A stretch of DNA of 64,000 bases from Spirochaetaceae bacterium (GCA_051531975.1 JAOPTT010000020.1:1-64000), one strand, 5' to 3'; shown: positions 4,317-26,459, counted from the first letter of the stretch. Notes: generated by a model from the letters alone, not told the origin. Translations and numbers: made by a program.

Positions 4317-4348
4317 ACAAGACGAGTTTGTAGATTAAATGATATCAA
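4313..4348 (-). pseudogene. Possible N-terminal remnant of an iron-containing alcohol dehydrogenase (MISFNLQTRLV*)
   Basis: Strong RBS AAGAAAGGTG inside the moeB 3' end, then TTG and 11 codons resembling the F-x-x-x-T-R-(I/L)-V start of Fe-ADHs. The frame stops at the end of the convergent TPR gene. Confidence 0.3.
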
Positions 4349-5060
4349 TATTTTCACCTTTCTTATTATAGCAGTTACAGTTGGTACTGCTTTTCAATAA
4401 AATAGTATCAATGTCATAATTTATAAGATTAACGGAGATATAACTATAACTACGATCCCATAACCCTATAATATACTTTATACATTCAAGAGCCTGAATA
4501 TTTCCAACGATACCGGTTGATGCACCTAATACCTGCCTGTAAATATCCGTATTATTCAGTTCTAAACAATTAAAACATGCTGTATTAGAAGGTTCTATAA
4601 TCTGGATAAATCCGTCAAATCCTTCTATACCACCTTCAATAACTGTTTTATTAAGTTTTACAGCTTCTTTACTTACAAGTTTTCTCGTTTCATAATTGTC
4701 TACACAGTCAATTATTATATCAAAGTTTGGAAAGATGATCTTAGCTGATTCTTCAGTTAAGGTCTGTTTATATGTCATTATATCAATGGTTTGATTCATT
4801 TTATTAAGTCTTTTTTCTGCTGATATTGTTTTGTAATCACCAATAGAATCTTCATCATGGAGTATCTGTCGATTTAGGTTTGTTATATCTATAGTGTCAT
4901 AATCAACAATACCGATAGTGCCAATTCCACTAACAGCCAGTGATTGAAGGACAGGGGAGCCAAGACCTCCACTTCCTATTACTAAAACTTTGGATTCTTT
5001 AAGCTTTTCCTGATTTTGAACACCAATAAGTTCGATCTGTCTTATAAATCTACTCATCAA
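4335..5060 (-). CDS. moeB: ThiF/MoeB/HesA family adenylyltransferase
   Basis: VLVIGSGGLGS nucleotide loop, D..DITNLNRQILH, DCVDN, Zn motifs CFNC and CNC; coupled to the moaD-like gene. Confidence 0.85.
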   Translation of the reverse strand: MMSRFIRQIELIGVQNQEKLKESKVLVIGSGGLGSPVLQSLAVSGIGTIGIVDYDTIDITNLNRQILHDEDSIGDYKTISAEKRLNKMNQTIDIMTYKQTLTEESAKIIFPNFDIIIDCVDNYETRKLVSKEAVKLNKTVIEGGIEGFDGFIQIIEPSNTACFNCLELNNTDIYRQVLGASTGIVGNIQALECIKYIIGLWDRSYSYISVNLINYDIDTILLKSSTNCNCYNKKGENIDII

Positions 5061-5278
5061 CCTGCACCTACAACCATAATAAACTTAATATGATCACCAT
5101 TTTTCAGAATGTCTGTTCTCTTTCCTATTAATCCATTAACAACAAATGCTACTCCGTCATTTGTAATCTGTAATAATTCCATAATATCCTTTATAGAAGA
5201 GTTCTCACTTATTGATATATTTTTTTGCTCCGGAAGAAATTTCTTTATTCTTCCTGTTGCTGATACTTCAACTTTCAT
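5057..5278 (-). CDS. moaD: MoaD/ThiS family sulfur carrier
   Basis: 73 aa, VVNG...LKNGDHI pattern, C-terminal Gly (VGAG), GGAG RBS, overlaps the moeB start. Confidence 0.8.
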   Translation of the reverse strand: MKVEVSATGRIKKFLPEQKNISISENSSIKDIMELLQITNDGVAFVVNGLIGKRTDILKNGDHIKFIMVVGAG

Positions 5279-5400: not shown

Positions 5401-5403
5401 TCA

Positions 5404-6426
5404 TTATCTTTGAACCCGACCTGAGCCGTCTCCAGCCATTAAAGTTTCAACTTCTTTTATTGTTACCTGATTAAAGTCTCCCTCTATCGTGTGTTTAAGG
5501 CAACTTGCAGCTACTGCAAACTCGACCTGATCCTGAGATTCAGATCTCTCGTTTAATGCATATAAAAGAGCACCAACAAAACTGTCTCCACCACCAACAC
5601 GGTCAACTAATTGAATGTCATACTTTTTAGAGAAGTAACTTTTTCCATCTTTATAGAGTAGGGCAGACCAACCATTTATGCTTGCAGAATAACTTTCTCT
5701 TAGAGTTATAGCTACAGTTTTACAACCATACTGTTTCACAATTTTTTCTGCAACTTGCGTATAACCGACTTTATTTATTTCCCCAGCTATTACATCAGTT
5801 TCAGATGCACAGATTCCTAAAACTTTTTCTGCATCCTCTTCGTTTCCAATACAAACATCTACATAGGGCATAATACCAGACATAACTTCTTTTGCTTTTT
5901 CTTTACTCCACAAGTTACCTCTGTAGTTTAAGTCACAACTTACCGTAATACCTTTCTCTCGACACTTTTTTAACGCTTGTTTTGTTACTTCAATACAGGA
6001 ATCTGATAGTGCTGGAGTAATTCCTGTTGTATGAAACCATGTTGCTCCATCTAAAATATCGTCCCAATTAAATTCTGATGGATCAGCCATGGAAATTGAA
6101 CTATATTTTCTATCATAAATTACTTTTGAAGGTCTTTGTGATGCACCTTTTTCAACATAGTACATTCCTAATCTATCTCCACCTTCTATTATTTTATTAA
6201 CCTCTACATCATATCCTTTTAATATTCTTTTAACTAAAAGACCTAGATCATTTTTAGGCACCATGGAAACAAAAGAAGATTTTACACCGTAGTTTGCAAG
6301 AGAAACAGCTACATTTGCTTCTCCTCCAGCAAAAGTAACATCAAAGCTTGTCGCCTGTAAAACTTTTTTATATCCAGTGGGACAAAGTCTCCCCATAATT
6401 TCACCAAAACATACTATCTTTTTCAT
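5404..6426 (-). CDS. kdgK: 2-keto-3-deoxy-sugar acid kinase (PfkB family, KdgK-type)
   Basis: FGEIM, GGEANVA, GASQRPSKVIYDR, DLNYR, DRVGGGDSF, C-terminal SGRVQR. Confidence 0.9.
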   Translation of the reverse strand: MKKIVCFGEIMGRLCPTGYKKVLQATSFDVTFAGGEANVAVSLANYGVKSSFVSMVPKNDLGLLVKRILKGYDVEVNKIIEGGDRLGMYYVEKGASQRPSKVIYDRKYSSISMADPSEFNWDDILDGATWFHTTGITPALSDSCIEVTKQALKKCREKGITVSCDLNYRGNLWSKEKAKEVMSGIMPYVDVCIGNEEDAEKVLGICASETDVIAGEINKVGYTQVAEKIVKQYGCKTVAITLRESYSASINGWSALLYKDGKSYFSKKYDIQLVDRVGGGDSFVGALLYALNERSESQDQVEFAVAASCLKHTIEGDFNQVTIKEVETLMAGDGSGRVQR

Positions 6427-6435
6427 TTTAATTTC

Positions 6436-7080
6436 CTACCCTTTAACTTTTTTTACAAAGGCTTTAGCCAGATTTGTTAACTCATCAAATTTCCCACTAT
6501 TAATTAATTTTTTGTCTACAAGAGATGAACCTAGACCAACTGCTGATGCACCTGCATTCATAAAATCTTTTATGTTATTGAGATCTACTCCACCAACAGC
6601 TAAAAGAGGAATATGATTAACAGGTGATATAATTGCTTTTAGATAAGAGACACCTAAAACTCCAATTGGGAATATTTTTGCAGCTGTTGCTCCAGCTTTA
6701 TATGCATTTACAATTTCTGTTGGTGTCATAACACCTGGTAAAGAAACAAGTCCTAATTCCACTGTTTTCTTGACAACTTCTACATCAAAGTTTGGGGAGA
6801 TAATGTATTTAGCTCCAGCTTCTGCAGCTAACTCAACCTGTTGCACTGTCATTACTGTTCCGGCACCAACACATACTTCTGAACCCATGTTATCCGATAT
6901 AAGTTTAATAGAGTTATATGTATCTTCGTTCCCAGTAGGAGTGGATAGATTAAAAGTAACCTCTATTAAAGATATTCCTCCAGAGTAAAGTGCTTTACAG
7001 GTATCAAGTATTTTATCCTGATCTATGCCTCTTACTATGGCAATAATTTTATCCTTTTGGATTTTTTCAAATGTAGTCAT
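6436..7080 (-). CDS. eda: KDPG/KHG-family aldolase
   Basis: IAIVRG, IEVT, VGAGTV, ISP, PGVMTPTEI, KIFP, AVGGV motifs. Confidence 0.9.
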   Translation of the reverse strand: MTTFEKIQKDKIIAIVRGIDQDKILDTCKALYSGGISLIEVTFNLSTPTGNEDTYNSIKLISDNMGSEVCVGAGTVMTVQQVELAAEAGAKYIISPNFDVEVVKKTVELGLVSLPGVMTPTEIVNAYKAGATAAKIFPIGVLGVSYLKAIISPVNHIPLLAVGGVDLNNIKDFMNAGASAVGLGSSLVDKKLINSGKFDELTNLAKAFVKKVKG

Positions 7081-7089: not shown

Positions 7090-8238
7090 TTACCTTCTTT
7101 TATCAACCCTATATTTTTCTAATAGTTCTTCGTCAATCTCGATTCCAAGTCCAGGTTTAGTTGGGGGAAGTATATATCCGTCTACTAATTCCAATGGTTG
7201 TTTTGCTAATTTATCTCTGAATATATTTGTTGTTCTATCATATTCCAACAACATATCTTCCTGCACTAGTTTATGTGGATAATCAGGTAGGGAAAATGCA
7301 CAATGTATTGCTGTAAAAAGGCCTATAACACTTCCCCAAACGTGGGGGTAACACTGAATATTATTAACATGTGCAAGCATAGCTATTTTTCTAAACTCTG
7401 AGATTCCACCTGTCACAGCACAATCTGGTTGTACTATATCTACAGCTCTTCTATTTAGTAGATTGTTAAAACCATATCTTGTAAATTCTGCTTCCCCACC
7501 AGATAATGGGATTGTAGTTTTACTTTTTAATTCTATATATCCATCAATATCTTCTGGAGGAACAGGCTCTTCAAACCATGTAATATTACACTCTTCTATA
7601 CCCCTGCAGACTTTTAGAGCTGTATTTGCATTATATGCGTGGTTAGCATCTACCATTAACATCAGATCATTACCAACTGCAGCTCTAATCTTCTTAACAA
7701 GATTTATATCATCTTCTATTCCAAATCCGATTTTAATTTTTATAGCTTTAAAACCATCATTTTTATATCTAAGAGCTTCTTGTACTAAAACTTTGTGATT
7801 CGATGGAAGCTGGGTAGGGTAGAGACCTGTAGCATATGGTAAAAGATGTTTTCTTGGGGTTCCACCTAATAATTTATAGATTGGTAGGTTTAGAAATTTA
7901 CCTTTAATATCCCATAAAGCAATATCTATTGCACTCATCGCTTCTATTGCATTTCCCTTAGGACTATGGTCTCTAAACATGTTATATAGACCTTCCCAGA
8001 TAACCTCTATATCAAGAGGATCTCTACCCATAATATAGGGAGTAAAATAATTATCGATTAAAGCTTTATTTACATAAGCTGGACCAAAGGATTCACCCCA
8101 TCCAACTATTCCTGTATCAGTAGTAATTTTTAATATCATAATAGTTCTGGTATTGTACCAAGCTTGGGAATATGCAAAGCTAACACCTTCACCTAAGTTC
8201 TGTTTAACTATTATTGTTTCTACACTTTCTATTTTCAT
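7090..8238 (-). CDS. Enolase-superfamily (mandelate racemase subgroup) cycloisomerase, 3,6-anhydro-galactonate/galactarolactone cycloisomerase-like
   Basis: ATG 8238 after AGGAG (track start 8259). KxK (KIKIG), DANH, WFEEP, GGE, QPD, PHVWG and EYDRT motifs. N-terminal FAYSQAWYNTR resembles the recalled DauB-type cycloisomerase. Confidence 0.8.
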   Translation of the reverse strand: MKIESVETIIVKQNLGEGVSFAYSQAWYNTRTIMILKITTDTGIVGWGESFGPAYVNKALIDNYFTPYIMGRDPLDIEVIWEGLYNMFRDHSPKGNAIEAMSAIDIALWDIKGKFLNLPIYKLLGGTPRKHLLPYATGLYPTQLPSNHKVLVQEALRYKNDGFKAIKIKIGFGIEDDINLVKKIRAAVGNDLMLMVDANHAYNANTALKVCRGIEECNITWFEEPVPPEDIDGYIELKSKTTIPLSGGEAEFTRYGFNNLLNRRAVDIVQPDCAVTGGISEFRKIAMLAHVNNIQCYPHVWGSVIGLFTAIHCAFSLPDYPHKLVQEDMLLEYDRTTNIFRDKLAKQPLELVDGYILPPTKPGLGIEIDEELLEKYRVDKRR

Positions 8239-8521: not shown

Positions 8522-9190
8522 TTAATTAAGATTCTTTTTTGTAGCATTTAAGTGAATCATCATAGTTTCTTTAGCACCTTCTGAGTCTGAGTTAACTATG
8601 CATTCATAGATGTTTCTATGGTAATGTAGCTGAGATTCTTCAAGAAACTCTTTTTTATCAGCTTCTGCAATCTGTTTTAATAATATAGGGCTGTATGACT
8701 CAACTATAGTATGCAGAAGTCTATTTCCACTGGCTTTAGCAATCGTAGAATGGAATAGATAGTCACTCTCCTGAAATTTTCTGGATGTCACGGTCTCTTT
8801 TTCCATGGTTTCAATACACGATTTTAATACTTCTTTATCCTCATTACTCCCATTTAATGCTGCAAGAGAAGAGGCTTTTGGTTCCATTAAAATTCTAATT
8901 TCTAACAGTTCATTATATGTTATATTGTTTCTTTCTAACATTTCCGCTAAAAAATTGATGGCAACTTCAGTACTTTTGTTATTAACCTTAACCCCAACAC
9001 CATGCAGCCGTTGAACAAAGCCCCTAACTTCTAAGATTCTAATAGCATCCCTAACAGTTGCTCGGCTTACATCTAATTGTTTACTGATTTCGAGTTCGCT
9101 AGGTAAAAGATCCATATTGGAATACTTACCATCTCTGATCCAACCTTCTATTTCTGTTACTGTCTCTTTTACTAAATCCTGTTTTGCCAT
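8522..9190 (-). CDS. GntR/FadR family transcriptional regulator
   Basis: LPSELEISKQLDVSRATVRDAI winged HTH; FCD domain with FHSTIAKASGN. Confidence 0.92.
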   Translation of the reverse strand: MAKQDLVKETVTEIEGWIRDGKYSNMDLLPSELEISKQLDVSRATVRDAIRILEVRGFVQRLHGVGVKVNNKSTEVAINFLAEMLERNNITYNELLEIRILMEPKASSLAALNGSNEDKEVLKSCIETMEKETVTSRKFQESDYLFHSTIAKASGNRLLHTIVESYSPILLKQIAEADKKEFLEESQLHYHRNIYECIVNSDSEGAKETMMIHLNATKKNLN

Positions 9191-9313: not shown

Positions 9314-11224
9314 TTAAATATTACTAAACTCATGTAGGTCTAGATTTATTAATGTTCCTTCGGTAGGTTTACCATTAATATCCCACCCCATAATCTCATA
9401 ATAGAGTTTTAATGCATTATCAAAATCGTCTTTATTAATAGCTACACCTTTATATGGTCCATCTTCCAACGGTTCAAACATTCTATTTGGTAATGTATCG
9501 GATTTTGCTCCTAATCCGTTTATATCGTTGAATATTCTAGCCATATGTGTACCTTTTTCTGCAATTTTAATCATCTCTGAGAAATCCATGTCCCAACCAC
9601 ATGTCTGGTTGATAATGTCTAAAATATGTTCCAGTTTAAACATCTTTCTCTCAGGTACCCCAACAAAAATACATACATCAAGTACATTGTATAAACTCCA
9701 TAGGGATTGAAGATGTTTAAAGAGTTTTATTTTCTGATAATCTAAAGAAGTGGCCTTCATAGGTTCTGTAATACCAAAAACTTTAAGTGGAGACAGATCC
9801 ATACCACCAAGTTCATTATCTTCATCAGGTCGTGATTCAAATGCGTGGTCATGGGCTACAACTAAGTGGTCAGCTCCAGTAGCAGAAACTGCATAACCTA
9901 AACCAATATTCCATTTACCTCTAGGTTCATGTGCAGCAAATTCCTGTTTTCTGGATGTCATACTGTATTTTTTTGAACCTTTTCCTATAATCTCTCCAGC
10001 TCTGTAACTTCCTTCTGCAAGGATCTTACCAAAACCTTCTCTTTTGGCAATAAGTTTTATCATTTGTAGCATAGCCTTGCCATTTCCGAAATTTAATTCT
10101 ACTCCATCAGTATCCTCTAAAGTAATAAGACCCTTTTCAAAACACTCCATCGCCCAGGCAATAGTCATACCTGCGGAGACCGTATCTAATCCATATTGTC
10201 CACATAACTCATTAGCCTTACATACAATTTTAAGGTCACTAATACCACAAGCTGAACCTGTTGCACCAATTGTTTCAAATTCAGGGCCTCCATATTTTTT
10301 ATCTACAGTTAAATCTTTATCCTTAATTTCTACAACTCTTTTACACCTTACAGGACATGCATAACAGGCCTCTCTTTTTACTAGAAGTTCATCGTGCATT
10401 TTATCAGCATTCAACTCTGAGGCTTTATCAAATGTTCCTTTCATGAAGTTTTTTGTTGGTAGAAGACCCATTCCGTTTAATGCATCAACTCCTGAAGCTG
10501 TTCCATATTCACTAAAATATGACAGACCTTCATTTTTTTTCATATTTTGGGCAAACCACTTACTGTGTTTTAAAACACCATCTCGGTTTTTCATAGAGAT
10601 TTTACCAGAACCTCTAACAGCTATGGCTCTTAACTTTTTTGAACCCATAACAGCACCCATACCACATCGTCCATTCCAGTGTCTTAGCTCATTGGTAACA
10701 GCTGCATATTTAACTAGGTTTTCACCGGCTATACCTGTTTGAAGTACTCGAACTTTTACATCCCCTAATTCATCCCTAATTATTTCCTGGGCATCTCCTG
10801 TTGATTTACCCCATATACTAGATGCATCTTTAATCTCAACCTTATCATCAATAATAGAGATATATACAGGAGAATCAGATTCACCTTCGACTATTATTAC
10901 ATCCCAACCTGCAAATTTTAATTCTGGGCCAAAAAATCCACCAGCTTCTGAATCACCATAACCATCAGTTAAAGGTGATTTGGCTGCCAGAGTATGTCGT
11001 GCAGTTCCTGGTACGGGAGTTCCTGTTAATACACTGGTTGCAACAATTAGCTTGTTGTCAGCACCTAAAGGATCAGCACCCTTTGGTATCTCCTTTAACA
11101 TATAATATGCAGCTATATTTCTACCACCTAAGTACTTTCTATAAAATTCATCCTCTTGTATTTCTGTGGTTATTTTTTTTTGAGTCAGGTTAACTCTTAA
11201 AATTTTACCAGTAGCTCCGTACAT
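9314..11224 (-). CDS. aor: Aldehyde:ferredoxin oxidoreductase (tungsten/pterin AOR family)
   Basis: KILRVNLT, KSPLT, GRCGMGAVMGSKKLRAI, CYACPVRC 4Fe-4S motif, GPEFET, HEPR, GADH, DVCIF, YYEIMGWD; AAGGAG RBS. Confidence 0.92.
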   Translation of the reverse strand: MYGATGKILRVNLTQKKITTEIQEDEFYRKYLGGRNIAAYYMLKEIPKGADPLGADNKLIVATSVLTGTPVPGTARHTLAAKSPLTDGYGDSEAGGFFGPELKFAGWDVIIVEGESDSPVYISIIDDKVEIKDASSIWGKSTGDAQEIIRDELGDVKVRVLQTGIAGENLVKYAAVTNELRHWNGRCGMGAVMGSKKLRAIAVRGSGKISMKNRDGVLKHSKWFAQNMKKNEGLSYFSEYGTASGVDALNGMGLLPTKNFMKGTFDKASELNADKMHDELLVKREACYACPVRCKRVVEIKDKDLTVDKKYGGPEFETIGATGSACGISDLKIVCKANELCGQYGLDTVSAGMTIAWAMECFEKGLITLEDTDGVELNFGNGKAMLQMIKLIAKREGFGKILAEGSYRAGEIIGKGSKKYSMTSRKQEFAAHEPRGKWNIGLGYAVSATGADHLVVAHDHAFESRPDEDNELGGMDLSPLKVFGITEPMKATSLDYQKIKLFKHLQSLWSLYNVLDVCIFVGVPERKMFKLEHILDIINQTCGWDMDFSEMIKIAEKGTHMARIFNDINGLGAKSDTLPNRMFEPLEDGPYKGVAINKDDFDNALKLYYEIMGWDINGKPTEGTLINLDLHEFSNI

Positions 11225-11245
11225 TAAAATCTCCTTAAATTTAAC

Positions 11246-11290
11246 TTGTCTGATGTTAAAATTACTTGTATGATATCAGATATCTCTGAT
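11246..11290. promoter_or_regulatory. Putative FadR/GntR operator sites in the aor/sulfatase divergent promoter
   Basis: TTGTCTGATGT (11246-11256) and palindromic ATATCAGATAT (11273-11283), matching the sites at 8349-8380. Confidence 0.55.
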
Positions 11291-11418
11291 AATAATGTAT
11301 ATATTTTATTTTGGCAATTCAGAATTTACTAAAATACACATTGCCTGGGTTTTGACTAGGTATTGATTTTTAGTATATAAATTTAACAGAAATGAAGATA
11401 ACTAACTGAGGGGTGAAT

Positions 11419-12960
11419 ATGATAGAGTCAAAAAAACGGCCAAATATATTAATATTTATGACAGATCAGCAAAGGGGGGACTCTTTAACAAACCCTCTGA
11501 TTCCTACCCCTCATTTGGATAAATTCAGACAGGAAGGGATAACATTTACAGATGCTTATTGCCCTTCTCCACACTGCTGTCCTTCCCGTGCAAGTTTTTT
11601 TACAGGACTATATCCAACAAGACATGGTGTTTGGAATAATGTTGACGTGGCAAATGCTCTAAGCCGTACAACTAAAGACAGTGTGGGATTTTTTACAGAT
11701 ATCCTTTGTAAAGATGGCTACCGGATGGATTATAACGGTAAATGGCATGTAAGCAGCCAGTTTGGTCCAGAAGAAATTGGTTGGAATGTTGGAAGTGTTA
11801 AGGGTAATCAGGCAAAATTCAAATCTGATGGGAAACCATTTACCATGGAAGAAATGGAGATTGAAAAGCACCGGAACTGGCAGAAATATAGTAAATGTAA
11901 GATAGATAATAAAGATGATTCCCGTAAATCTGGAGATATAATACGTACCGGATATCCAAGATATACACATTATGGAGTAAATGGGAATCCTTTTCAGGAT
12001 GTTGATGTAACAACAGAGGCTGTTGATACTATATTAAACCGTAAAAAATCTGATAATGCACCATGGATTCAATATATCGGTCTGTTGGGACCCCACGATC
12101 CATATAAAGTTCCACAGGAATTTCTTGATAAAATAGACACAAATCTTATAGAATTACCGGAAAGTTTTAATGATGATATGAAAGATAAACCCGGGTTTTA
12201 TAGGCGTATACAGGATATCTATTCCCGTTTACCAAGGGAGGAACATATAAAATCTTTGCATCACTACTATGCATTTTGTTCATTTGTTGATGCACAGTTT
12301 GGTAGAATCCTTGATGCTATAAATATAACTGGGGAGGCAGATAATACTATTATTCTGTTTGTATCCGACCATGGTGACTATGCGGCAGAACATGGCTTAT
12401 GGACAAAGGGACTTGCTCCTTTTAAAGGCGCTTATCATATCCCTGCTGTTATCAGCTGGCCTAATGGTATAAAAAATCCGGGAAGGGAGATCGATGAAAT
12501 GATATCGCTTGTTGATTTTGCTCCAACCTTCCTTGAAGCTGTAAATAGTCATAAGAGTAATCCACACGGTAAAATACCCACTGAAGAAGGTTTATCCGAA
12601 CAAATCCCGTTTGCCGGAAAATCACTTGTTCCATTTCTTAAAGAAGAAAATGTTACATGGAGAGAGGAGTTGTATACACAGTCAAATGGAAATGAACTCT
12701 ACGGTATTCAAAGAGTTGTCTTTGATAAAAAGTATAAATTTGTATTTAACGGCTTTGACTATGATGAACTATATGATCTGCAAAAAGATCCCCATGAGAT
12801 GAAAAACCTGATATCTGGTGGTAAAAATGGAGATTATGAAGCTGTTGTAAAAGAATATTATATAAAGATGTGGCAATTTGCCAGGGAAAATGGTGATCAG
12901 TATAATAATCCATATATAAATACTGCTTATCCAACATTTGGGCCGGGCATTGTCTTCTAA
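11419..12960 (+). CDS. Cys-type (S1) sulfatase, no signal peptide
   Basis: PNILIFMTDQQR, CCPSRASFFTG, GKWH, PHDP, SDHGD, ELYDLQKDPHE. ATG 11419 after GAGGGG (alternative GTG 11413). Confidence 0.92.
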   Translation: MIESKKRPNILIFMTDQQRGDSLTNPLIPTPHLDKFRQEGITFTDAYCPSPHCCPSRASFFTGLYPTRHGVWNNVDVANALSRTTKDSVGFFTDILCKDGYRMDYNGKWHVSSQFGPEEIGWNVGSVKGNQAKFKSDGKPFTMEEMEIEKHRNWQKYSKCKIDNKDDSRKSGDIIRTGYPRYTHYGVNGNPFQDVDVTTEAVDTILNRKKSDNAPWIQYIGLLGPHDPYKVPQEFLDKIDTNLIELPESFNDDMKDKPGFYRRIQDIYSRLPREEHIKSLHHYYAFCSFVDAQFGRILDAINITGEADNTIILFVSDHGDYAAEHGLWTKGLAPFKGAYHIPAVISWPNGIKNPGREIDEMISLVDFAPTFLEAVNSHKSNPHGKIPTEEGLSEQIPFAGKSLVPFLKEENVTWREELYTQSNGNELYGIQRVVFDKKYKFVFNGFDYDELYDLQKDPHEMKNLISGGKNGDYEAVVKEYYIKMWQFARENGDQYNNPYINTAYPTFGPGIVF

Positions 12961-17872: not shown

Positions 17873-18763
17873 ATGATCACTACAATCAATAAGAAGGAGA
17901 TAAGTATAGCTTACCTTTTTCTTCTTCCATCCTTAATCGGTTTTTTACTTTTCATGTTATATCCGATTGTTTTCTCAATATATTTAAGTTTAAGTGATTG
18001 GTCTTTTTTCTCAGGTTTCTCAGGGATCAAGTTTATTGGTCTGGAAAACTTTAAAAAGTTAGCCGATGATTACTACTTAAATGCAGCATTAACAAACAAT
18101 ATGTTATTATCATTATTGTCTGTGCCTATTTCAATATTTTCAGCACTGATTATCGCTACATTCTTAAATATGAATATTAGATTTAGAGGTGCTATAAGAA
18201 CACTTGTTTTTATGCCGTATATAGCTACTTTAGTTGCAGTTGCTATAGTTTTTGGTGCTCTGTATAACCCTGATTTTGGGCCTATAAACATGTTTTTAAG
18301 GTCCATAGGAATTGATAATCCTCCTAGATGGCTATCAGATATTAAGTGGGCTCTGCCATCTGTAGCTATTTTATGGAGTTGGAAACATATTGGTTATATG
18401 ACTGTTATATTTTTGGCAGGTCTGCAAAATATACCTAATATGTACTACGAGGCAGCTACTATAGATGGGGCTGGGTCATTTAGAAAATTTACTAATATTA
18501 CCTGGCCACTGGTCTCCCCTACAACTTTCTTTTTAACAATAACAGGTGTTATGAACTCCTTAAAGATATTTCCAGAGATAAAGGTATTAACAGATGGGGG
18601 ACCTGGTACAGCCACATACACTATGGTTTACCATATCTATACCGAAGCATTCGAGAATTACAACATGGGATATGCTGCGGCATTAGCGCTACTCTTTTTT
18701 GTGATAACTATGATTATTACGCTTATTCAATGGGCTCTGCAAAAAAGATGGGTTAACTATTAA
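17873..18763 (+). CDS. Carbohydrate ABC transporter permease
   Basis: Multiple TM segments; LAGLQNIP..YEAATIDGA EAA loop. Confidence 0.93.
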   Translation: MITTINKKEISIAYLFLLPSLIGFLLFMLYPIVFSIYLSLSDWSFFSGFSGIKFIGLENFKKLADDYYLNAALTNNMLLSLLSVPISIFSALIIATFLNMNIRFRGAIRTLVFMPYIATLVAVAIVFGALYNPDFGPINMFLRSIGIDNPPRWLSDIKWALPSVAILWSWKHIGYMTVIFLAGLQNIPNMYYEAATIDGAGSFRKFTNITWPLVSPTTFFLTITGVMNSLKIFPEIKVLTDGGPGTATYTMVYHIYTEAFENYNMGYAAALALLFFVITMIITLIQWALQKRWVNY

Positions 18764-19608
18764 TGGGGATTAAAATGAATATTACAACTAAACGAGAAAT
18801 ATATAGAACATTAGGTAGTCTGGTATTATTGGGGTTAACAATATTAATGGCCATGCCACTATTTTGGATGATCTCATCATCATTTAAGTTTGAAGCGGAT
18901 CTGTTCACTTTCCCAATTAAATGGATACCTGATAATGGAACTATTTCAAATTATGTTAAGGTATGGACAAAGTATCCATTTGAACTTTGGTATTGGAATA
19001 CTATAAAGGTTACTTTTGGGATAATAGTTTTCTCCCTAACCAGTAGTGCTTTAGCAGGATACGCTTTTGCCAGATTAAATTTTCCTGGAAAGAACTTCTT
19101 GTTATTGGCTTATATATGTACAATGATGATACCATTTGAGCTGAGAATTATTCCGCAGTTTACTCTTTATCAGCTACTGCATTTACAGGATACACACTGG
19201 ACTATAATTCTACCCTGGGTATTTAATCCTTTTAATGTATTTATGTTACGTCAGGCTTTTAAAGGTATACCTATGGAGATAACAGAATCTGCTAAACTGG
19301 ATGGCTGTCCTGAATTTACTATCTTTATTAAGCTGATGTTACCTAATATTACAGCCTCCTTAATGGCTTTAATGATAATACAATTTGTTCATGGATGGAA
19401 TTCATACCTGGCACCATTAATTTATCTTGCTTCATCATCAAAACAGCTGCTAAGTCCAGGAATTGCAACATTTGTTCAACAGTATAACAGTAACTATGCT
19501 ATGCAGATGGCGGGTGCAAGTTCTGCCCTTCTTCCAATATTGGCTGTATACCTTATTGGACAGAAATATTTTATTGAAGGTATAGCCATGAGTGGAATTA
19601 AAGGCTAA
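18763..19608 (+). CDS. Carbohydrate ABC transporter permease
   Basis: AGYAFARL, IPMEITESAKLDG, GQKYFIEGI..GIKG. Confidence 0.93.
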   Translation: MGIKMNITTKREIYRTLGSLVLLGLTILMAMPLFWMISSSFKFEADLFTFPIKWIPDNGTISNYVKVWTKYPFELWYWNTIKVTFGIIVFSLTSSALAGYAFARLNFPGKNFLLLAYICTMMIPFELRIIPQFTLYQLLHLQDTHWTIILPWVFNPFNVFMLRQAFKGIPMEITESAKLDGCPEFTIFIKLMLPNITASLMALMIIQFVHGWNSYLAPLIYLASSSKQLLSPGIATFVQQYNSNYAMQMAGASSALLPILAVYLIGQKYFIEGIAMSGIKG

Positions 19609-19613: not shown

Positions 19614-22076
19614 ATGGATAATTTAATATTTGGCAATAGCCCCGGTTATTGGACTGCAAAGTGGATGGAACTGCCTAATTCCGATGGTAATAACTCTTTC
19701 TTCCGTATAAGACACAACTTTAAAATAGAAGAGAAGCCAAAAAAATCAACAGTGTATATCAGTGCAAGATTAAAATATAGACTGTTGATTAATGGGGAAT
19801 ATATTGGGGAGGGTCCGGCTAGAAGCAGCATGGAGGAGTACTCATATGACTCCTATGTTCTTACCGGAGGCCTGAATATTGGTGAAAATATAATATCCAT
19901 TGTAGTTAATCATTATGGTGAACTGCCCGGTGCATTTTTATTTCAAATGAATATGGTAGATCACCAGGGGATAAGTTCTATAATCTCAAGTGATGAAAAC
20001 TGGTTATATCAGGAAGCTCTGGAGTATAAAAATAGAACCCAGCTATATGGGTATGCTGATTATAGTGAAGTTTATGATTATAATACTAAATCTAATGATT
20101 GGAAAAAAGCTGAATATTTAGATCCTTTTAACTCCATGACTACCAAAAGAAAGAAACCTGTAGCCATGCCTTTTTTAGATATTATCCCCAGAGATATTCC
20201 AAAGCTTAACCAGGATATTATTCTTCCGGGTAAAGTCTTTAAATATGGAGAATCACCTCTTTGGCAGGAGACCGGGGAGAACTTTGGTGAGTATATGGCT
20301 GGGGAGATTCATCTTCCATTATCTGAATGTTCTATAAAGAATAAAGATGCACTACTAGATAGTAGTGACAAAACATGTGATATCTCCAGACCGGCTATTA
20401 ACTATACTGTATCTGAATTTAAAGGACTGTTTGATCCATTTATAATACTGGATTTTGGGAAATTGTTAAATGGTTATATCTGTATTGAAGCAGAAACAGA
20501 AGATGGTTGTAATACAATGATAGATATTGGTTATTCCGACCGGATCTACTACGATAGAGTTATCACCCAGCCATACAGGGGCCTGTGTTCCGCCGACCGG
20601 GTTATTATGGGCAGTGAACCTGTAGCCTGGAAATCATTTTATTGGCGGCAATTCCGTTATGTACAGATCTCTGTTAGAGACCTGACAGGTGTTTTAAAGA
20701 TTAAAAAAATCCATGTCATGGAACAGGCCTATCCTTTTAAGAGCCAGGGAGCATTTTATTCTAGTAATAAAGAGTTAAACAGGCTTTGGGATATGACTAA
20801 GAAAACCATAGAACTCTGTACCTCGGATAATTTTATGGATAATGGCCTACGTGAAAAACAACCATGGACTGGGGATATTGCAACCATAGTTTTAGGTACT
20901 TTAGCTATTTTTGGGGATGATCCTATTATTCGGCGTTATATTGCTACTAATATGAGCGGTCAAAAAAATAGTGGTCTAATTCCCGGACATTGGCCGGAGA
21001 CATCTGTTAAAGCTCATAGTGTCACAAAACAGGGTAATATCCTGTGGTTTGAGCACCCTATGGCATTAATGCTCAGAATGTCAGAATATTATATTCATGG
21101 CGGGCATAGCGGGTTTATAAAAAAATACTCCAGCCACTTTAGAAACTACGTAAACACACTCGAAAAGTATGAAAATCCGGATAGTGTTCTAGAAGAGATC
21201 CCCGGACAGCACTGGGTCGACTGGGCAGCCCTTAATATGACAGGGATATCGTTTATTACTAACCTGTGGTATAGCGAAATACTTAAACTGGCTTCTGAAT
21301 TGAATAAATCTGATAAGGATTTTTCAGAGAGATGCTTATTTAAAGCTGAGAGTATTAGAACATTTTTAATAGAAAATTTATGGGACAGGGAGTTAAACCT
21401 GTTTGTTGATAGTATTAATCAATCCGGTGAACAGACATATTCTGAGCATAGTAACTACTCTGCTCTGCTATACGGTCTGGTTCCTGTTAATGATTCAGAT
21501 AGATTTATTCAAACTGTATCAGATGCTGATATTATTAGGGTTGAACCATCATTTATGTATACCCCTATTATGGCATTAATGAGTAGTGGGCATATAGGTA
21601 AGGCGTTGGAAATGATATCCCAAAGGTATAAAATTTGGTTGGACGGAGATTATGACACCCTGCCGGAAGAGTGGCATCCTAATGCAACCTTTAGGGATGG
21701 TTACTGGAAAGGTAGAATTAGAGCATTGGCTCAAGCAGCATCTTGTGGTCTCCCTTTTACCTTCCATCGTGGAATTTTAGGTGTTAATCCAACATCTAAT
21801 GGATATAAAACATTTACAGTATCGCCAGCCATTGATTATTTAGAAATGTGTAGTGGAACTGTACCTACACCGTATGGGTCTATAAATGTTGACTGGAAAA
21901 GAGAAAACCAGCAGATAGTATTAACTATTGAATCTCCTGAAAGTGCTATAGGAGAACTGATTGTACCAAAGAACTACTCTATCCAGGGTATTTCTTCATC
22001 TGGGGAACTAGTGACTTTAACAGAAGGTATTACAAATATTGTATTACATAAGGTTGATTCAGGAGTTAAATACTAA
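19614..22076 (+). CDS. Divergent GH78 (alpha-L-rhamnosidase-like) glycoside hydrolase
   Basis: Rhamnosidase N-domain (YRLLINGEYIGEGP), LDFG, FRYVQ, D..REKQPWTGD, TLPEEW, and C-domain VPTPYGSINVDW. No signal peptide. Confidence 0.8.
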   Translation: MDNLIFGNSPGYWTAKWMELPNSDGNNSFFRIRHNFKIEEKPKKSTVYISARLKYRLLINGEYIGEGPARSSMEEYSYDSYVLTGGLNIGENIISIVVNHYGELPGAFLFQMNMVDHQGISSIISSDENWLYQEALEYKNRTQLYGYADYSEVYDYNTKSNDWKKAEYLDPFNSMTTKRKKPVAMPFLDIIPRDIPKLNQDIILPGKVFKYGESPLWQETGENFGEYMAGEIHLPLSECSIKNKDALLDSSDKTCDISRPAINYTVSEFKGLFDPFIILDFGKLLNGYICIEAETEDGCNTMIDIGYSDRIYYDRVITQPYRGLCSADRVIMGSEPVAWKSFYWRQFRYVQISVRDLTGVLKIKKIHVMEQAYPFKSQGAFYSSNKELNRLWDMTKKTIELCTSDNFMDNGLREKQPWTGDIATIVLGTLAIFGDDPIIRRYIATNMSGQKNSGLIPGHWPETSVKAHSVTKQGNILWFEHPMALMLRMSEYYIHGGHSGFIKKYSSHFRNYVNTLEKYENPDSVLEEIPGQHWVDWAALNMTGISFITNLWYSEILKLASELNKSDKDFSERCLFKAESIRTFLIENLWDRELNLFVDSINQSGEQTYSEHSNYSALLYGLVPVNDSDRFIQTVSDADIIRVEPSFMYTPIMALMSSGHIGKALEMISQRYKIWLDGDYDTLPEEWHPNATFRDGYWKGRIRALAQAASCGLPFTFHRGILGVNPTSNGYKTFTVSPAIDYLEMCSGTVPTPYGSINVDWKRENQQIVLTIESPESAIGELIVPKNYSIQGISSSGELVTLTEGITNIVLHKVDSGVKY

Positions 22077-23644
22077 TGAAAAAAAAGAATGTAATATTTA
22101 TCATTTGTGATGAATTAAGAGCTGATTCTCTAGGATTTATGGGTAATAAACAGGTTAAAACACCTAATCTTGATAAATTAGCTTCTGATAGTTTAATAAT
22201 AGAAAAAGCCTACTGTTCCAGCCCCATGTGTTGTCCATCTAGAGCCAGTTTGGCCACAGGTCGCCATCCTTTGACCCATGGGGTACTAGATAATGGTTTA
22301 CATATGATGGAAGACGAAGTTTCCCTCTATGGGATTCTTCGTGATTCTGGTTATAACACTGTAAATATTGGTAAATGGCATATAAATAGTAAACATGATA
22401 CCAACTTTGGTATGAATACCAATATCACTCAAATAAAGTGTGAAGACCAAAAAATTAACCCTTTTGGTATAACTGATTCTGAATTAAGAAAAAAAACTAC
22501 ATATAAAAAAATGCATGGGGATATATCTCTTGCAATACATGGGCAGCGACCAATAAAAGCTGAGGAATCTTTAGATTCACTGTATACAGATGAATTTATT
22601 AAAGAGATAGAGAAGGCTAAACAGTCAGTTGAACCATCTTTTTTACGGTTATCTCTGTTAGATCCCCACTCTCCATATATGCCATGTAAACCATATAGTG
22701 AAATGTATAATTACAAAGATATAGAACTACCAGTTAGTTTTAATAGTAATTTAGAAACAAAACCTCTTATGCATAAGCTTTTTCATAAAATACGAGGTTT
22801 TGACCATCTTGTAGAGGATGATTATAAGAAGTGTAAAGCTAGTTATTATGGGTTAATATCACATGTTGATTATAGAATTGGTAAAGTTATAGATAGTCTA
22901 AAAGAACTAGATATGTACGACAACTCACTTATAATATTTACATCTGACCATGGGTCTATGATGGGTGAACATGGGTATATTGAAAAATGGGGATACATGT
23001 ATGAAGAGGTATCAAAGATTCCATTTATCATTAAATTTCCTAAAGAAGAGGAGCTAGAAGGTCGGTCTGATACATTTATGGAAAATATCGATATTATGCC
23101 GACAATTCTTGACTATTTAGGAGTTGATATTCCTGAAAATATACATGGGAAAAGTCTAATACCTTACATAAAAAACAGGAATGAGGAACATAGGACAGAA
23201 GTTCATGGATTATCGTATATTGGTGGATTTCAAGATGAACCAGCACTTATGATAAGAGATGATATTTGGAAATTGACTATTTATCCAGGGCAGGAAAGCC
23301 TTGAAAATGGACTAAACAACGACCACTACTTAAGATATTCAGATTTTTTTGATGGAAAGATTATTGGTGGAGAGTTATATAATTTAAATAGTGATCCATT
23401 TGAGTTAAATAATCTATTTTGTGATGAAAATTATAAATCAATAAAGAATAAATATGTAAAAAAAATAGATGAGTGGAAAAAAAGCCTGGGCCCTATCGTT
23501 GATTATAAAGGAATGGAACCTTTAAAAAACAGTCTAGCATTTTTTAGTTTATCCCAGGGGGATATGTTAAGTGAAACAAATAATTTGATTTTGTCCAATA
23601 GATTAAATGGCAATATACATAAAAGAGGTAGAAATAGTGAATAA
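22076..23644 (+). CDS. Cys-type (S1) sulfatase, no signal peptide
   Basis: NVIFIICDELR, CCPSRASLATG, GKWH, PHSP, SDHGS, ELYNLNSDPFE. Confidence 0.92.
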   Translation: MKKKNVIFIICDELRADSLGFMGNKQVKTPNLDKLASDSLIIEKAYCSSPMCCPSRASLATGRHPLTHGVLDNGLHMMEDEVSLYGILRDSGYNTVNIGKWHINSKHDTNFGMNTNITQIKCEDQKINPFGITDSELRKKTTYKKMHGDISLAIHGQRPIKAEESLDSLYTDEFIKEIEKAKQSVEPSFLRLSLLDPHSPYMPCKPYSEMYNYKDIELPVSFNSNLETKPLMHKLFHKIRGFDHLVEDDYKKCKASYYGLISHVDYRIGKVIDSLKELDMYDNSLIIFTSDHGSMMGEHGYIEKWGYMYEEVSKIPFIIKFPKEEELEGRSDTFMENIDIMPTILDYLGVDIPENIHGKSLIPYIKNRNEEHRTEVHGLSYIGGFQDEPALMIRDDIWKLTIYPGQESLENGLNNDHYLRYSDFFDGKIIGGELYNLNSDPFELNNLFCDENYKSIKNKYVKKIDEWKKSLGPIVDYKGMEPLKNSLAFFSLSQGDMLSETNNLILSNRLNGNIHKRGRNSE

Positions 23645-26459
23645 TAATATAATATCCCTTAACGGTGATTGGAAAGTTGTTTTTGATGATGATAATAAGG
23701 GGCGATATTTAGAACTTCAAAACAGAGAGAACTTTTTAAAACAGGAAGATATACACACAGTAGAAGTTCCCTCCTGTCTTGAGGAGTATAAAGAGGATTA
23801 TCAAGGTGTTGCATGGTATTATAAAAACATTCATATATCAGAGGATTATTTAGGGAAAAATTTGAGGATATCCTTTGATGCTGTAAATTACCGGTGTGAA
23901 GTCTGGCTAAACGGCTATCCTGTAGGAATACATGAAGGTGGATATGTTGGGTTCGAATTTGATATTACTAGTTTTGTTAAACATGGTGAAGATAATGATC
24001 TTTCTGTAAGGGTTATTACTCCATTAATTACCCGGGATGTAGTGATTGATGGTTTAGCTAGGGATGAAGCTCCTCACTGGAGAGGTGCTATTGCCGGGGG
24101 TATTTGGCAAAACGTCTCTATAAAAAGTTCAGGATCAACTTATCTAGAAGAGATCTTTGTTCAGCCAGATATAAAAAATGGTAAAATAGACGTTTCTATG
24201 AATATTATTAACAATTCTATGGAGACGATAGGTCATAAACTTAACGTTTTTGTAGATTCATTTAATAGAGAAGGATTAAAAGAGAGTGTCTTCTTTAATA
24301 TAGAGGCCGAACCTGGAATTAATAAATTTTCATTTGAGTATGATATGGGAAGTTACGATTTATGGTCATTTGATAACCCCAACTTATATCTACTTAGCAT
24401 GAATTTAATGAACGATAATTCTAGTTCAGATAATCAAACAGTTAGATTTGGAATGAGAGAATTTACTATAGATGGTGCAGACTTTATTCTAAATGGAGAA
24501 AAAGTAATTTTAAAGGGCGCATTTTATGAGGGTGTATATCCACACTCTTTAGCCTATCCAAGGGATATAGAAGTTCTGCGTAAGACATTAACCCGGGCCA
24601 AAGAAGCTGGACTTAACCTTATAAGACCATGGAGAAAACCACAGCCACCAATTGTATACGATATGGCAGATGAGTTAGGAATATTTTTTATTGGTACTCT
24701 ACCAATAGAATGTATGGATTATTGGCCTAAAATGACTCCTGGAATATATAAACGTATAGATAATGAAATATCAGAGATGATAATACGTGACAGGAATCAT
24801 CCATCAATAATAATGTGGGAAATGTTTAATGAAATATGGCGTCTGCCTCTAAAGCAGTACAAACATAAAGCATCACTTATTGCCAGATATAACGATCCTG
24901 CCCGTATAATTTTAGATGAAGCAGGTGGTTTTGCAGGTGGAGCGAGTATTTATCTTCCTTATAGTAAATCCCCGGTAGTTATGAATGATGTTCATCACTA
25001 CCCTAGGGCTCCATTTGAAGACAAAGAGTTTGATAACTTTTTAGCACTTGCTAAAACTCCCCAGGAAATTAAATCTATGGGTATGGATTCCGAGGAATTC
25101 AAATTCAGACAGATGAAACCAGGTGTTTTAACAAATATATCTGAAATAGGTTATGGAAGTGTTACAAACTTAGAAGAAAATATGGAGAGATACCAGAGAG
25201 AAGGTAATAAGCTAACCCCAGATTATAAAATACATGAAAGACTTTATAGTTCATATAAACAAGTTTTAGATGAGACTGGTATAATTTTTATGTTTGGTTC
25301 TTTAAAGAACTTTTCCATAGCAAGTCAAAAAGTACATGCTAATGGAAATAAATTTATGATTGAGTCCTGCCGACTAAATGAAAATATCGGTGGAATTATG
25401 GTACACGCCCTTGCAGATGGTGACTGGGTTGTTGGTGCTGGAATGCTAGATCAGTTTGGAGATACTAAAGAGTCATATTATGGTGTTAAAAAAGGTTTTA
25501 GTAAAATCTATATATCAACAAGGGTAGATAAAGTAAATCTAATTATAGGTGAACCTATAAAAATAGATTTAAGAACAATAAATGATACAGCAGAAGTTTG
25601 TGGTAATTTAAAACTATATATTGTGGATGAAAATTGTAATGAATTTGTTATTTCTGATATTAGTAATATAACTATTAAAGAAGGAATTAATTTTCTAAAC
25701 ACAAGTACAACAACAACTTCTGATCTTTATGGGATGTGTAAATTAAAGGTTGAGTTTAAAGTAGATGATGAAGTATTCGCAGATAATGAAATGGACATAT
25801 ATATTCTTGAACCGTTTAATGTTACAAAAAAGACTCTATGTTTTGTTGAAAAAAATAGCTCATTAAAAAGTTATGCAGATAGTGAAGGTATACCCAACAG
25901 AGCCTTTGATGACAAAATGCCAATAGATGTTCCTCTTTTTTATTCAGGCTCAACAGATGAAAAAATACTGACTAAAATATCTGAATGGGTAGATCGTGGA
26001 GGATGTGCAAATATTATGACGTTCCCCCAAGGAGTTAGAATGCCTGAAACAATAATTTCAGAGCAGTTAATTCAAAACTATCTACCATTTGATGTAATAA
26101 CAATTCAGAATCAGGATCTTTGGTCTCCATCAAACCACATATTAAGGGATCATTCTCTATTTAGAGGTCTTCCTACTGAAATAATTATGGATAATCCTTT
26201 TAAAAATATTCTACCTAGGCAGTCTATAGTTAATTATAATGATAATTGGTTTGCTGGGACAATCTATTATACTTGGTTTGGTGGACAGGAACACAAACAA
26301 CATTATTATGGGGTTAACAAAGCAGAACATGCTTCTGATGTTGTTGAAATACCTTATGGTAAAGGAAAATTCATTTTAAATACAATAAGAATAGCTGATA
26401 ACATAAATTCTGATAGAATTGCACAGTTAATGTTTAATAACTTGGCAGAATGGAAATAG
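23637..26459 (+). CDS. GH2 glycoside hydrolase (beta-galactosidase-like)
   Basis: GTG 23637 after GAGG; SLNGDW, HEGGY, GGIWQ, FGMREF, RDRNHPSIIMWEMFNE (acid/base), ISEIGYG (nucleophile). Confidence 0.9.
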   Translation: MNNNIISLNGDWKVVFDDDNKGRYLELQNRENFLKQEDIHTVEVPSCLEEYKEDYQGVAWYYKNIHISEDYLGKNLRISFDAVNYRCEVWLNGYPVGIHEGGYVGFEFDITSFVKHGEDNDLSVRVITPLITRDVVIDGLARDEAPHWRGAIAGGIWQNVSIKSSGSTYLEEIFVQPDIKNGKIDVSMNIINNSMETIGHKLNVFVDSFNREGLKESVFFNIEAEPGINKFSFEYDMGSYDLWSFDNPNLYLLSMNLMNDNSSSDNQTVRFGMREFTIDGADFILNGEKVILKGAFYEGVYPHSLAYPRDIEVLRKTLTRAKEAGLNLIRPWRKPQPPIVYDMADELGIFFIGTLPIECMDYWPKMTPGIYKRIDNEISEMIIRDRNHPSIIMWEMFNEIWRLPLKQYKHKASLIARYNDPARIILDEAGGFAGGASIYLPYSKSPVVMNDVHHYPRAPFEDKEFDNFLALAKTPQEIKSMGMDSEEFKFRQMKPGVLTNISEIGYGSVTNLEENMERYQREGNKLTPDYKIHERLYSSYKQVLDETGIIFMFGSLKNFSIASQKVHANGNKFMIESCRLNENIGGIMVHALADGDWVVGAGMLDQFGDTKESYYGVKKGFSKIYISTRVDKVNLIIGEPIKIDLRTINDTAEVCGNLKLYIVDENCNEFVISDISNITIKEGINFLNTSTTTTSDLYGMCKLKVEFKVDDEVFADNEMDIYILEPFNVTKKTLCFVEKNSSLKSYADSEGIPNRAFDDKMPIDVPLFYSGSTDEKILTKISEWVDRGGCANIMTFPQGVRMPETIISEQLIQNYLPFDVITIQNQDLWSPSNHILRDHSLFRGLPTEIIMDNPFKNILPRQSIVNYNDNWFAGTIYYTWFGGQEHKQHYYGVNKAEHASDVVEIPYGKGKFILNTIRIADNINSDRIAQLMFNNLAEWK

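Follow-up and report, generated by a model that had tools for sequence, protein, structure and literature searches.

A predicted aldehyde oxidoreductase in place of the dehydrogenase in a candidate anhydrogalactose pathway of a Spirochaetaceae bacterium

How might an anaerobe begin the catabolism of 3,6-anhydrogalactose (AHG)? The sugar is one of the main units from which agars and carrageenans are built, and the known routes for its use come from aerobes and start with an NAD(P)-dependent dehydrogenase. The question is raised by a 64-kb stretch of contig C20 from a Spirochaetaceae bacterium (GCA_051531975.1 JAOPTT010000020.1:1-64000), here called the window, in which a gene for an aldehyde oxidoreductase (AOR) stands in line with genes for a cycloisomerase, an aldolase and a kinase that resemble those of the Dau pathway for D-AHG. 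An earlier note on this DNA had claimed that the AOR fills the missing first step of an anhydrogalactose pathway. We have analysed the window together with its own genome (G000; 5.46 Mb, 98.5% complete) and with related loci from other genomes and metagenomes (handles beginning with C, G and L denote contigs of G000, genomes and loci). The minus-strand genes probably encode an AOR-initiated, Dau-type pathway for D-AHG, in which the AOR would replace the dehydrogenase DauA and, in the corresponding L-AHG route, the AHG dehydrogenase (AHGD).

Genes were called from a listing of open reading frames (ORFs) with Pfam and NCBIfam profile scans of 44 window ORFs, and the layout claimed earlier was confirmed: aor, a FadR-type regulator gene, enolase, aldolase, kinase, moaD and moeB are co-oriented, and a sulfatase, two-component system, ABC importer, GH78-like, sulfatase and GH2 operon diverges from them. 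The aor gene (9314-11224, minus strand, like the genes listed after it) specifies AFOR_N and AFOR_C domains (249 and 419 bits) and a proposed 3,6-anhydro-D-galactose:ferredoxin oxidoreductase. It is followed by the GntR/FCD regulator gene (8522-9190), in which both domains are found, and by the enolase-superfamily gene (7090-8238), whose product has MR_MLE N- and C-terminal domains and whose ATG at 8238 is preceded by AGGAG. Next come an Eda-type, DauD-like aldolase for 2-keto-3-deoxy-6-phosphogluconate or -galactonate (6436-7080; PF01081, and TIGR01182 at 179 bits, over its cut-off) and a PfkB kinase for 2-keto-3-deoxy-gluconate (KDG) or -galactonate (KDGal), a putative analogue of DauC (5404-6426), whose best NCBIfam models are KDG/KDGal kinases, all under cut-off. 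The run closes with a MoaD/ThiS-like small sulfur-carrier protein of 73 residues with the C-terminus VGAG (5057-5278; ThiS family, 29.9 bits) and a MoeB/ThiF-like adenylyltransferase (4335-5060; ThiF, 219 bits, with MoeB/ThiF models matching under their cut-offs). The claimed absence of an aldehyde dehydrogenase also held: none of the 44 scanned ORFs has an Aldedh domain (PF00171), and the six PF00171 matches of the genome are all on other contigs.

Free AHG is mostly present as the open aldehyde or its hydrate. In the route that we propose, a single-subunit AOR would oxidise the free D-AHG aldehyde to 3,6-anhydro-D-galactonate and pass the electrons to ferredoxin; the DauB-like enolase, judging by its homology, would then open the anhydro ring to give 2-keto-3-deoxy-D-galactonate, which the PfkB kinase would phosphorylate and the Eda-type aldolase would cleave to pyruvate and glyceraldehyde-3-phosphate (GAP). 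Reduced ferredoxin would be reoxidised by [FeFe]-hydrogenases or Rnf, and the same genome would encode the mirror-image route for L-AHG from agar, served by a paralogous AOR. The use of ferredoxin rather than NAD+ for a very exergonic oxidation lets a fermenter shed electrons as H2 or feed Rnf. In the known pathway, DauA is essential for growth of Zobellia on D-AHG (PMC5698469). No description of an AOR-initiated anhydrogalactose route, of which the earlier note likewise knew none, was found in the full-text literature searched, subscription journals lying outside that search.

The proposal depends in the first place on the identity of the enolase. Against solved structures, the window protein scores 372 bits with DauB of Zobellia (5olc, its best PDB match), 291 bits with the galactarolactone cycloisomerase Gci (4ggb) and 154 bits with the L-specific ACI (5xd7). 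The residues aligned by HMMER to K166, D194, E220, E246 and H296 of AtGCI, which are the metal ligands and acid/base residues named for DauB and AtGCI, are all kept, as are the further pocket residues D87 and W298. None of the NCBIfam dehydratase models reaches its cut-off with this protein; the galactonate dehydratase model (DgoD) gives 209.1 bits against a cut-off of 311. Of the two motifs that the earlier note named as DauB-like, PYATGLY is identical in DauB (5olc) and reads aYATGsf in Gci, and the N-terminal FAYSQAWYNTR is similar, but not identical, to FYFSQWQYDTR. In a tree of 77 rows, the window enolase falls inside a 16-row clade of Bacillota and Spirochaetota anaerobes (SH-like approximate likelihood ratio, SH-aLRT, 98), with L010 as its sister. 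The tree lacks 11 of 80 screened loci, in which the matched stretch was short or held a stop; its reference DauBs come from the plasmid loci of Pseudoalteromonas carrageenovora and Flammeovirga, those of Zobellia and AtGCI not being among its rows. Eight of the 16 clade rows have a DauA-like gene nearby, and a ninth DauA-bearing locus, L057, is the one outside the tree. On this basis, the enolase is predicted to be a DauB-like enzyme that converts 3,6-anhydro-D-galactonate to 2-keto-3-deoxy-D-galactonate.

If the second step is present, where is the first? The best matches in the genome are 30% identical for DauA of P. carrageenovora, 28% for DauA of Flammeovirga and 33% for AHGD, the aldA product of Microscilla plasmid pSD15, with an overall range of 27-33%. 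The two reference DauAs are 42.6% identical to each other, which provides a yardstick for orthologues, and other pathway references find own-genome matches of 42% (DauB), 41% (DauD) and 64% (ACI). By this yardstick, no orthologue of DauA or AHGD was found in the 98.5%-complete genome.

The strongest support for the substitution is a second AOR locus in the same genome. G000 has three AOR genes, one of them on contig C7, and the product of this one shares 54% identity with the window AOR. The C7 gene ends a plus-strand run (L090; C7:4985-15016) of genes for a solute-binding protein, two permeases, a GH117 enzyme, ACI, a GH117-like protein and the AOR, with gaps of 5-112 bp. The GH117 protein scores 337 bits with the anhydro-alpha-L-galactosidase 4ak5, and the ACI orthologue 509 bits with 5xd7, being the 64% match to ACI of Microscilla pSD15; the second GH117-like protein scores 365 bits with 4u6d, and the AOR gene starts 5 bp downstream of it. 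A GntR/FCD gene diverges from this agar-oligosaccharide run. At a contig end, C9:525846-528650 (L098:13847-16651, minus strand) carries genes for a zinc-dependent alcohol dehydrogenase (Zn-ADH), a short-chain dehydrogenase/reductase (SDR), a MoaD-like ORF of 75 residues and a MoeB-like protein 53% identical to that of the window, the upstream part of the operon being cut off. Its ADH and SDR are the best own-genome homologues (43-46%) of the proteins whose genes flank aldA-ACI on pSD15, and which we take to convert L-KDGal to KDG. The arrangement is intact on a metagenome contig, L102, where one co-oriented run of 11 genes reads solute-binding protein, two permeases, GH117, ACI, Zn-ADH, SDR, GH117, AOR, moaD-like, moeB-like; since its proteins are 85-93% identical to those of C7, it stems from a close relative and does not count as independent. 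The gene orders of the window, C7 and L102 taken together show that one organism has one AOR paired with a D-specific enzyme and a paralogous AOR paired with an L-specific enzyme, and that moaD/moeB-like genes close the two AHG gene sets. Because paralogous AORs stand in both gene sets, the AOR would be a non-orthologous replacement of both DauA and AHGD. With a DauB-type enolase in the window, no DauA or AHGD orthologue in the genome and a paralogous AOR beside ACI, we regard the replacement of the dehydrogenase by the AOR as well supported genomically, and the central claim of the earlier note stands at that level. In a sample of 401 genomes of the phylum, ACI was found only in G000 and in G053, and in the latter it adjoins a TRAP transporter and a GntR regulator in a 14.7-kb stretch that holds neither AOR nor Aldedh.

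What kind of AOR is encoded? The window protein scores 411 bits with the AOR of Pyrococcus furiosus (1aor) and keeps a CxxCxxxC motif with a fourth cysteine, together with a glutamate and a histidine aligned to E313 and H448 of 1aor. In 1aor these four cysteines are the [4Fe-4S] ligands, and E313 and H448 belong to the metal site. The GAP oxidoreductase (GAPOR) equivalog model gives 25.8 bits against a cut-off of 1300, which rules out that identity. No AorA- or AorC-like subunit gene lies adjacent to aor, and for this reason we assign the protein to the single-subunit, ferredoxin-type branch, which has been described (PMC6365974). As sequence neither distinguishes tungsten from molybdenum nor identifies the electron acceptor, the use of tungsten and ferredoxin is a prediction.

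In a tree of 83 AOR rows, drawn from the window, its genome, a metagenome scan and the enolase loci, the window AOR belongs to an 8-member clade (SH-aLRT 96) that also holds those of C7, L102, L105, L103, L128, L021 and L024. Five of the eight genes lie beside DauB/ACI-type genes, and the other three come directly after monosaccharide ABC transporter or fucose-isomerase-like genes. The clade has a signature, W438 being present in 8/8 members against 0/74 others and D516 in 8/8 against 3% of the others. In the metagenome scan, 77 of the 79 loci encode generic AORs at 40-50% identity. In L207, one of 20 further AOR loci from the same class, a partial DauB-like gene, gntR and AOR are co-oriented. 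Outside the clade, AORs near an enolase-superfamily gene (25-34% identical to the queries) were seen in L110, L164, L174, L175 and L048, the last of these from the enolase scan. In L110:43-2926 the AOR adjoins the enolase-superfamily gene, and the neighbours in L174:158-6805 are a xanthine-oxidase-type molybdenum-cofactor protein, a Gfo/Idh/MocA oxidoreductase and a ThiS-like gene. It may be that oxidative sugar-acid routes with an AOR extend beyond the 8-member clade.

A small ORF lies before moeB both in the C9 locus and in L102; the window MoaD-like protein shows 40-45% identity to these two, and all three proteins (window 5057-5278; L098:14551-14778; L102:11916-12143) end in VGAG, that is, in Ala-Gly and not Gly-Gly. 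An aor operon that includes MoaD-like maturation genes has been reported (PMC6365974), and we read the moaD-like and moeB-like genes as candidate pterin-cofactor maturation genes for the AOR.

How do related enolases solve the problem of the first step? We screened 80 related enolase loci by tblastn, with the window proteins and the reference proteins of annotated dau and agar loci as queries, and defined a closest set of 17 loci by an enolase identity to the window protein of 52% or more. A DauA-like aldehyde dehydrogenase, 40-51% identical to DauA of P. carrageenovora, is encoded in the flank of nine of the 17, and directly adjoins the enolase in L010, L016, L020, L022 and L057. One locus, L024, has the AOR only, and there it begins 4 bp past the DauB-like gene. 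Three more (L014, L015 and L023) have a TctCBA carboxylate importer between kinase and enolase and no oxidising enzyme, which suggests direct uptake of the sugar acid; the importer was recognised by Pfam in L015 and by ORFs of equal sizes in L014 and L023. The remaining four have neither oxidase nor importer, two of them being on contigs of less than 5 kb. Homologues of other window proteins recur around these enolases: PfkB kinases (45-59%) beside DauB-like genes in L010, L013-L015, L020, L023 and L025, GH2 proteins (39%) directly upstream of DauB-DauA in L016 and L020, the second sulfatase (22076-23644; 51%) directly upstream of the DauB-like gene in L025, and an ABC permease (51%) and solute-binding protein (35%) in the Faecalicatena DauA/DauB locus L057. 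Since DauA-like, GH2, sulfatase and ABC genes recur in this way, the window's enolase clade appears to be the anaerobe counterpart of the dau system, from which the window differs by an AOR at the expected place of DauA. The GH78-like gene has no tblastn homologue near any of the 80 loci, and a link between it and the AOR cluster is unsupported.

A further variant was noticed among these loci. In two spirochaete genomes and a Christensenellales metagenome-assembled genome (L021:1992-20601, L024:1059-13060 and L010:10001-21140), the DauB-like gene is accompanied by genes for a glycyl-radical enzyme, its radical-SAM activase and a monosaccharide ABC importer of the Peripla_BP_4 type. The binding proteins of the three importers are 62-84% identical; an SMP-30 lactonase is present in L021 and L024, an FGGY kinase in L021 and L010, and a DeoC-type aldolase in L021. 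This anaerobic glycyl-radical module may process the same or a related sugar differently.

The earlier note had envisaged aor next to dauB-like genes where dauA is absent, and this distribution was found in part. DauA of P. carrageenovora was searched in five genomes, four of which have an AOR beside a DauB-like gene. The best match is 28-32% in G000, 34% in G437 (100% complete) and 31% in G618 (90% complete), so that no match in these three exceeds 34%, whereas G434 has a DauA-like protein at 51%; three of the four genomes therefore lack a DauA orthologue. A metagenome-assembled genome of Vallitaleaceae (Clostridia) encodes an enolase 77% and an AOR 71% identical to those of the window, the longest contig recorded for each being 108,134 nt and the protein accessions five apart, and two JGI enolase/AOR pairs likewise stem from contigs of equal size (10,799 and 6,815 nt); in these three instances adjacency is deduced from the record data and not from sequence. 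Within the host's own surroundings the relationship is more distant. The host groups with Spirochaetia and not, as its low G+C content might suggest, with Firmicutes, the genomes of L021 (Oceanispirochaeta sp.) and L023 (Spirochaetaceae bacterium) belonging to its family and that of L024 (Thalassospirochaeta sargassi) to its class, and the window enolase and AOR are 54-55% and 43% identical to those of the host's own family. As the two proteins are far closer to Bacillota-type proteins than to these, the comparison points to horizontal acquisition of the cluster.

With regard to regulation, the P. carrageenovora dau locus has two FadR/GntR regulators, and for both the best own-genome match is the window GntR/FCD protein (27-29%), which is likely to be the local regulator. 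The region between aor and the divergent sulfatase operon (11225-11412) holds a promoter-like site on the minus strand (11317-11289, 10/12 matches); together with the hairpin at 9299-9276, this suggests that aor is probably on a transcript of its own. Such sites are weak hints only, the scan for promoters and terminators having returned 34 promoter-like sites against 35 expected, no excess over chance. A candidate for a shared operator was set aside. ATATCTGATRTCA occurs in three copies in the window, all upstream of aor and enolase, but was chosen post hoc, and a shared 13-mer as good as this one turned up in 129/300 dinucleotide shuffles of the two upstream regions; it is no evidence.

A number of observations weigh against an AOR-initiated D-AHG pathway. 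In the enolase tree, the reference DauBs of P. carrageenovora and Flammeovirga fall outside the 16-row clade and have long branches (1.2-1.3), and because of this the tree alone does not settle family membership: of the phylogenetic link to DauB rather than to ACI or Gci that the earlier note had looked for, the highest score and a clade rich in DauA neighbours remain, and a clean clade with the reference DauBs does not appear in this tree. A good many clade members stem from guts and digesters, settings in which D-AHG would not readily be expected as a substrate. The genome retains two non-acylating Aldedh-family genes, generic by NCBIfam and PDB, one (C9:233557-235002) in an IclR/sugar-ABC cluster and the other (C5:292060-293400) adjoining an old-yellow-enzyme-type reductase and a radical-SAM gene, and either may substitute for DauA/AHGD; a PDB search with the C9 protein gave no chain labelled anhydrogalactose dehydrogenase among the best 60 of 163. 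L021 (G434) carries both an AOR and the 51% DauA-like gene within 9 kb of its DauB-like gene, from which it follows that DauA and AOR are not strictly alternatives, and the product of the glycyl-radical enzyme in the clusters of L021, L024 and L010 could be the aldehyde on which the AOR acts there. AORs are broad-specificity enzymes (PMC6365974). MoaE was not found with its Pfam model in the 98.5%-complete genome, in which MoaC is present. Co-transcription of aor with the enolase operon is unlikely because gntR lies between them and a terminator-like hairpin (9299-9276) follows aor. Finally, the sole RNA match, from a small metatranscriptome of the same sample, is one contig of 165 nt (9024-9188, within gntR), with nothing on aor or enolase, and is uninformative on expression.

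Could the AOR, then, be a general aldehyde-detoxifying or acid-reducing enzyme, whose position beside sugar-acid genes has no pathway meaning? The regulator gene and hairpin between aor and enolase would agree with this, as would the lack of significance of the shared promoter motif and the fact that 72 of the 79 metagenomic AOR loci have no enolase-superfamily gene in their flank by tblastn. Yet one genome has an AOR gene next to each of two different cycloisomerase genes, at least three more genomes show such a pairing, and these AORs fall within a single clade. DauA is missing from three of the four genomes with an AOR beside a DauB-like gene, and in L102 the AOR stands between GH117 and moaD-moeB in a single run; we consider a general role very improbable. 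It is more the identity of the sugar that invites doubt, as an AOR-initiated pathway might serve another aldehyde-form sugar released by the GH78-like/GH2/sulfatase operon, with the enolase acting on the matching sugar acid, for example as a galactonate-type dehydratase. Enolase-superfamily dehydratases and cycloisomerases share their chemistry, members of the clade occur in chicken-gut, termite-gut and digester genomes, and the nearest glycosidase is GH78-like, not GH127 or GH129. The genome has no homologue of the Flammeovirga GH127, for which the query was the C-terminal 303 residues only, and one Pfam GH127 match (C9:336853-339105). On the other hand, the best characterised relative of the enolase is DauB and the galactonate dehydratase model stays well under its cut-off, the clade members pair with the DauA-like genes, GH2 and sulfatases as in the Flammeovirga carrageenan locus, and the kinase would need a C6 hydroxyl, which would exclude 6-deoxy sugars (rhamnose, fucose). 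A different substrate therefore seems unlikely.

A last alternative keeps D-AHG as the sugar and moves the AOR to a later step, where its substrate would be GAP, or the D-glyceraldehyde formed when unphosphorylated KDG/KDGal is cleaved by an aldolase, as in archaeal modified Entner-Doudoroff and glycolytic routes, AHG itself being oxidised by an unrecognised enzyme. AORs oxidise glyceraldehyde well (PMC6365974), a non-phosphorylative variant has been suggested for dau clusters without dauC (Ficko-Blean et al., PMC5698469), and neither a PfkB kinase nor an Eda aldolase gene occurs within 10 kb in L021 and L024. The window, however, has its own kinase and aldolase, so that free glyceraldehyde is not expected, and the GAPOR score is far too low for a GAP-oxidising enzyme of that type. 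Moreover, DauA and AHGD orthologues being absent from the genome, no candidate would then be left for the first step, and in L102 and C7 the AOR is placed among genes for upstream steps (GH117, ACI), with KDG kinase and aldolase elsewhere. We judge a later-acting AOR to be improbable.

Compared with the Dau pathway of Zobellia galactanivorans and P. carrageenovora (DauA-DauB-DauC-DauD; PMC5698469), the proposed AOR-initiated route shares the DauB-like cycloisomerase, the DauD-like aldolase (the 41% match to DauD of P. carrageenovora) and a kinase step for the 2-keto-3-deoxy-sugar acid, as well as a FadR/GntR regulator, as at the P. carrageenovora plasmid locus, and GH2 and sulfatases nearby, as at that of Flammeovirga. 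It differs in having an AOR-family enzyme instead of DauA, with moaD/moeB-like genes attached, in an anaerobic fermenter, and in having no GH127/GH129-type anhydrogalactosidase in the window locus. The kinase is also of another type, PfkB in the window where those of P. carrageenovora and Flammeovirga are annotated as DgoK-type, and neither the P. carrageenovora DauC (at E 1e-5) nor that of Flammeovirga has a match in the genome. The L-AHG agar pathway, with AHG dehydrogenase and ACI, shares with the C7 locus the ACI orthologue and two GH117 genes, and with the genome the ADH and SDR related to those of pSD15, but the AOR takes the position of aldA/AHGD. In archaeal modified Entner-Doudoroff routes, a C3 aldehyde (glyceraldehyde or GAP) is oxidised in a ferredoxin-linked reaction. 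These routes have ferredoxin-dependent aldehyde oxidation and 2-keto-3-deoxy-sugar-acid kinase/aldolase chemistry in common with the one proposed here, in which the aldehyde would be oxidised at the very start, as an intact C6 anhydro-sugar. Known tungsten AORs (1aor of P. furiosus; Aromatoleum aromaticum, PMC6365974) share the two-domain AFOR architecture, the kept cluster and active-site residues and, in part, the link of aor to MoaD-like genes. Their assigned roles lie in acid reduction or in amino-acid or aromatic aldehyde metabolism; in the literature searched none is placed in such a sugar pathway, and the W438 and D516 signature sets the 8-member clade apart from them.

The operon that diverges from aor on the plus strand would provide the sugar, its sulfatases, ABC importer and GH2 enzyme probably serving to import and trim sulfated galactan oligosaccharides. 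It begins with an S1-type sulfatase (11413-12960; PF00884), followed by a two-component system (12938-16328) made up of a histidine kinase with His_kinase and HAMP domains (12938-14752) and an AraC-type response regulator (14742-16328), and by an ABC sugar importer with an SBP_bac_1 binding protein (16406-17794) and two permeases (17873-19608), all recognised by Pfam. The distant GH78-family, alpha-L-rhamnosidase-like glycosidase comes next (19614-22076; Bac_rhamnosid6H and C-terminal domains, 152 bits to rhamnosidase B, 2okx), and then a second S1-type sulfatase (22076-23644; PF00884) and a beta-galactosidase-like GH2 glycosidase with GH2 domains (23607-26459).

The rest of the window, which has a G+C content of about 33%, contains a second sulfated-glycan locus of fucoidan-type appearance (44667-63998), with five sulfatases, three GH29-like alpha-L-fucosidase genes, one of them with a GHL6 domain, an AraC regulator, an ABC importer and a beta-helix protein that continues past the window end. 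A minus-strand group at 31783-36575 encodes a BNR-repeat (sialidase-like) protein, an MFS_2 sugar transporter, a GH1 glycosidase and a TetR regulator. On the other side, the moeB-like gene adjoins an ORF of 377 residues with no Pfam or NCBIfam match (3183-4316), and a large CoA-enzyme-activase-type protein (3-3143; BcrAD_BadFG and DUF2229) is cut by the window start.

What would an AOR at the head of this pathway mean for its host? The genome has five Fe-hydrogenase and three RnfD-like matches in profile searches and none to the haem-copper oxidase subunit COX1, and on these grounds the host fits the description of a fermenting anaerobe with sinks for reduced ferredoxin. A broader proposal, which we regard as evenly poised, is that a dedicated clade of single-subunit tungsten or molybdenum AORs acts as sugar-aldehyde:ferredoxin oxidoreductases and forms the ferredoxin-coupled entry to D- and L-AHG catabolism in marine Spirochaetia and Vallitaleaceae, and possibly in others; fermentation of carrageenan and agar would then depend on tungstate or molybdate, and other members of the clade would do likewise for further sugars. 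If the AOR does oxidise AHG, this would be, within the literature searched, the first physiological sugar substrate and the first role in polysaccharide degradation for a bacterial AOR, and would make available an oxygen-free, NAD-independent catalyst with which to produce anhydrogalactonate or KDGal from the sugars of seaweed. It would also explain how anaerobic users of AHG are missed by homology searches with DauA and AHGD, and would tie the turnover of red-algal carbon in anoxic sediments and guts to the supply of tungsten or molybdenum and to the conservation of energy from ferredoxin by way of H2 or Rnf.

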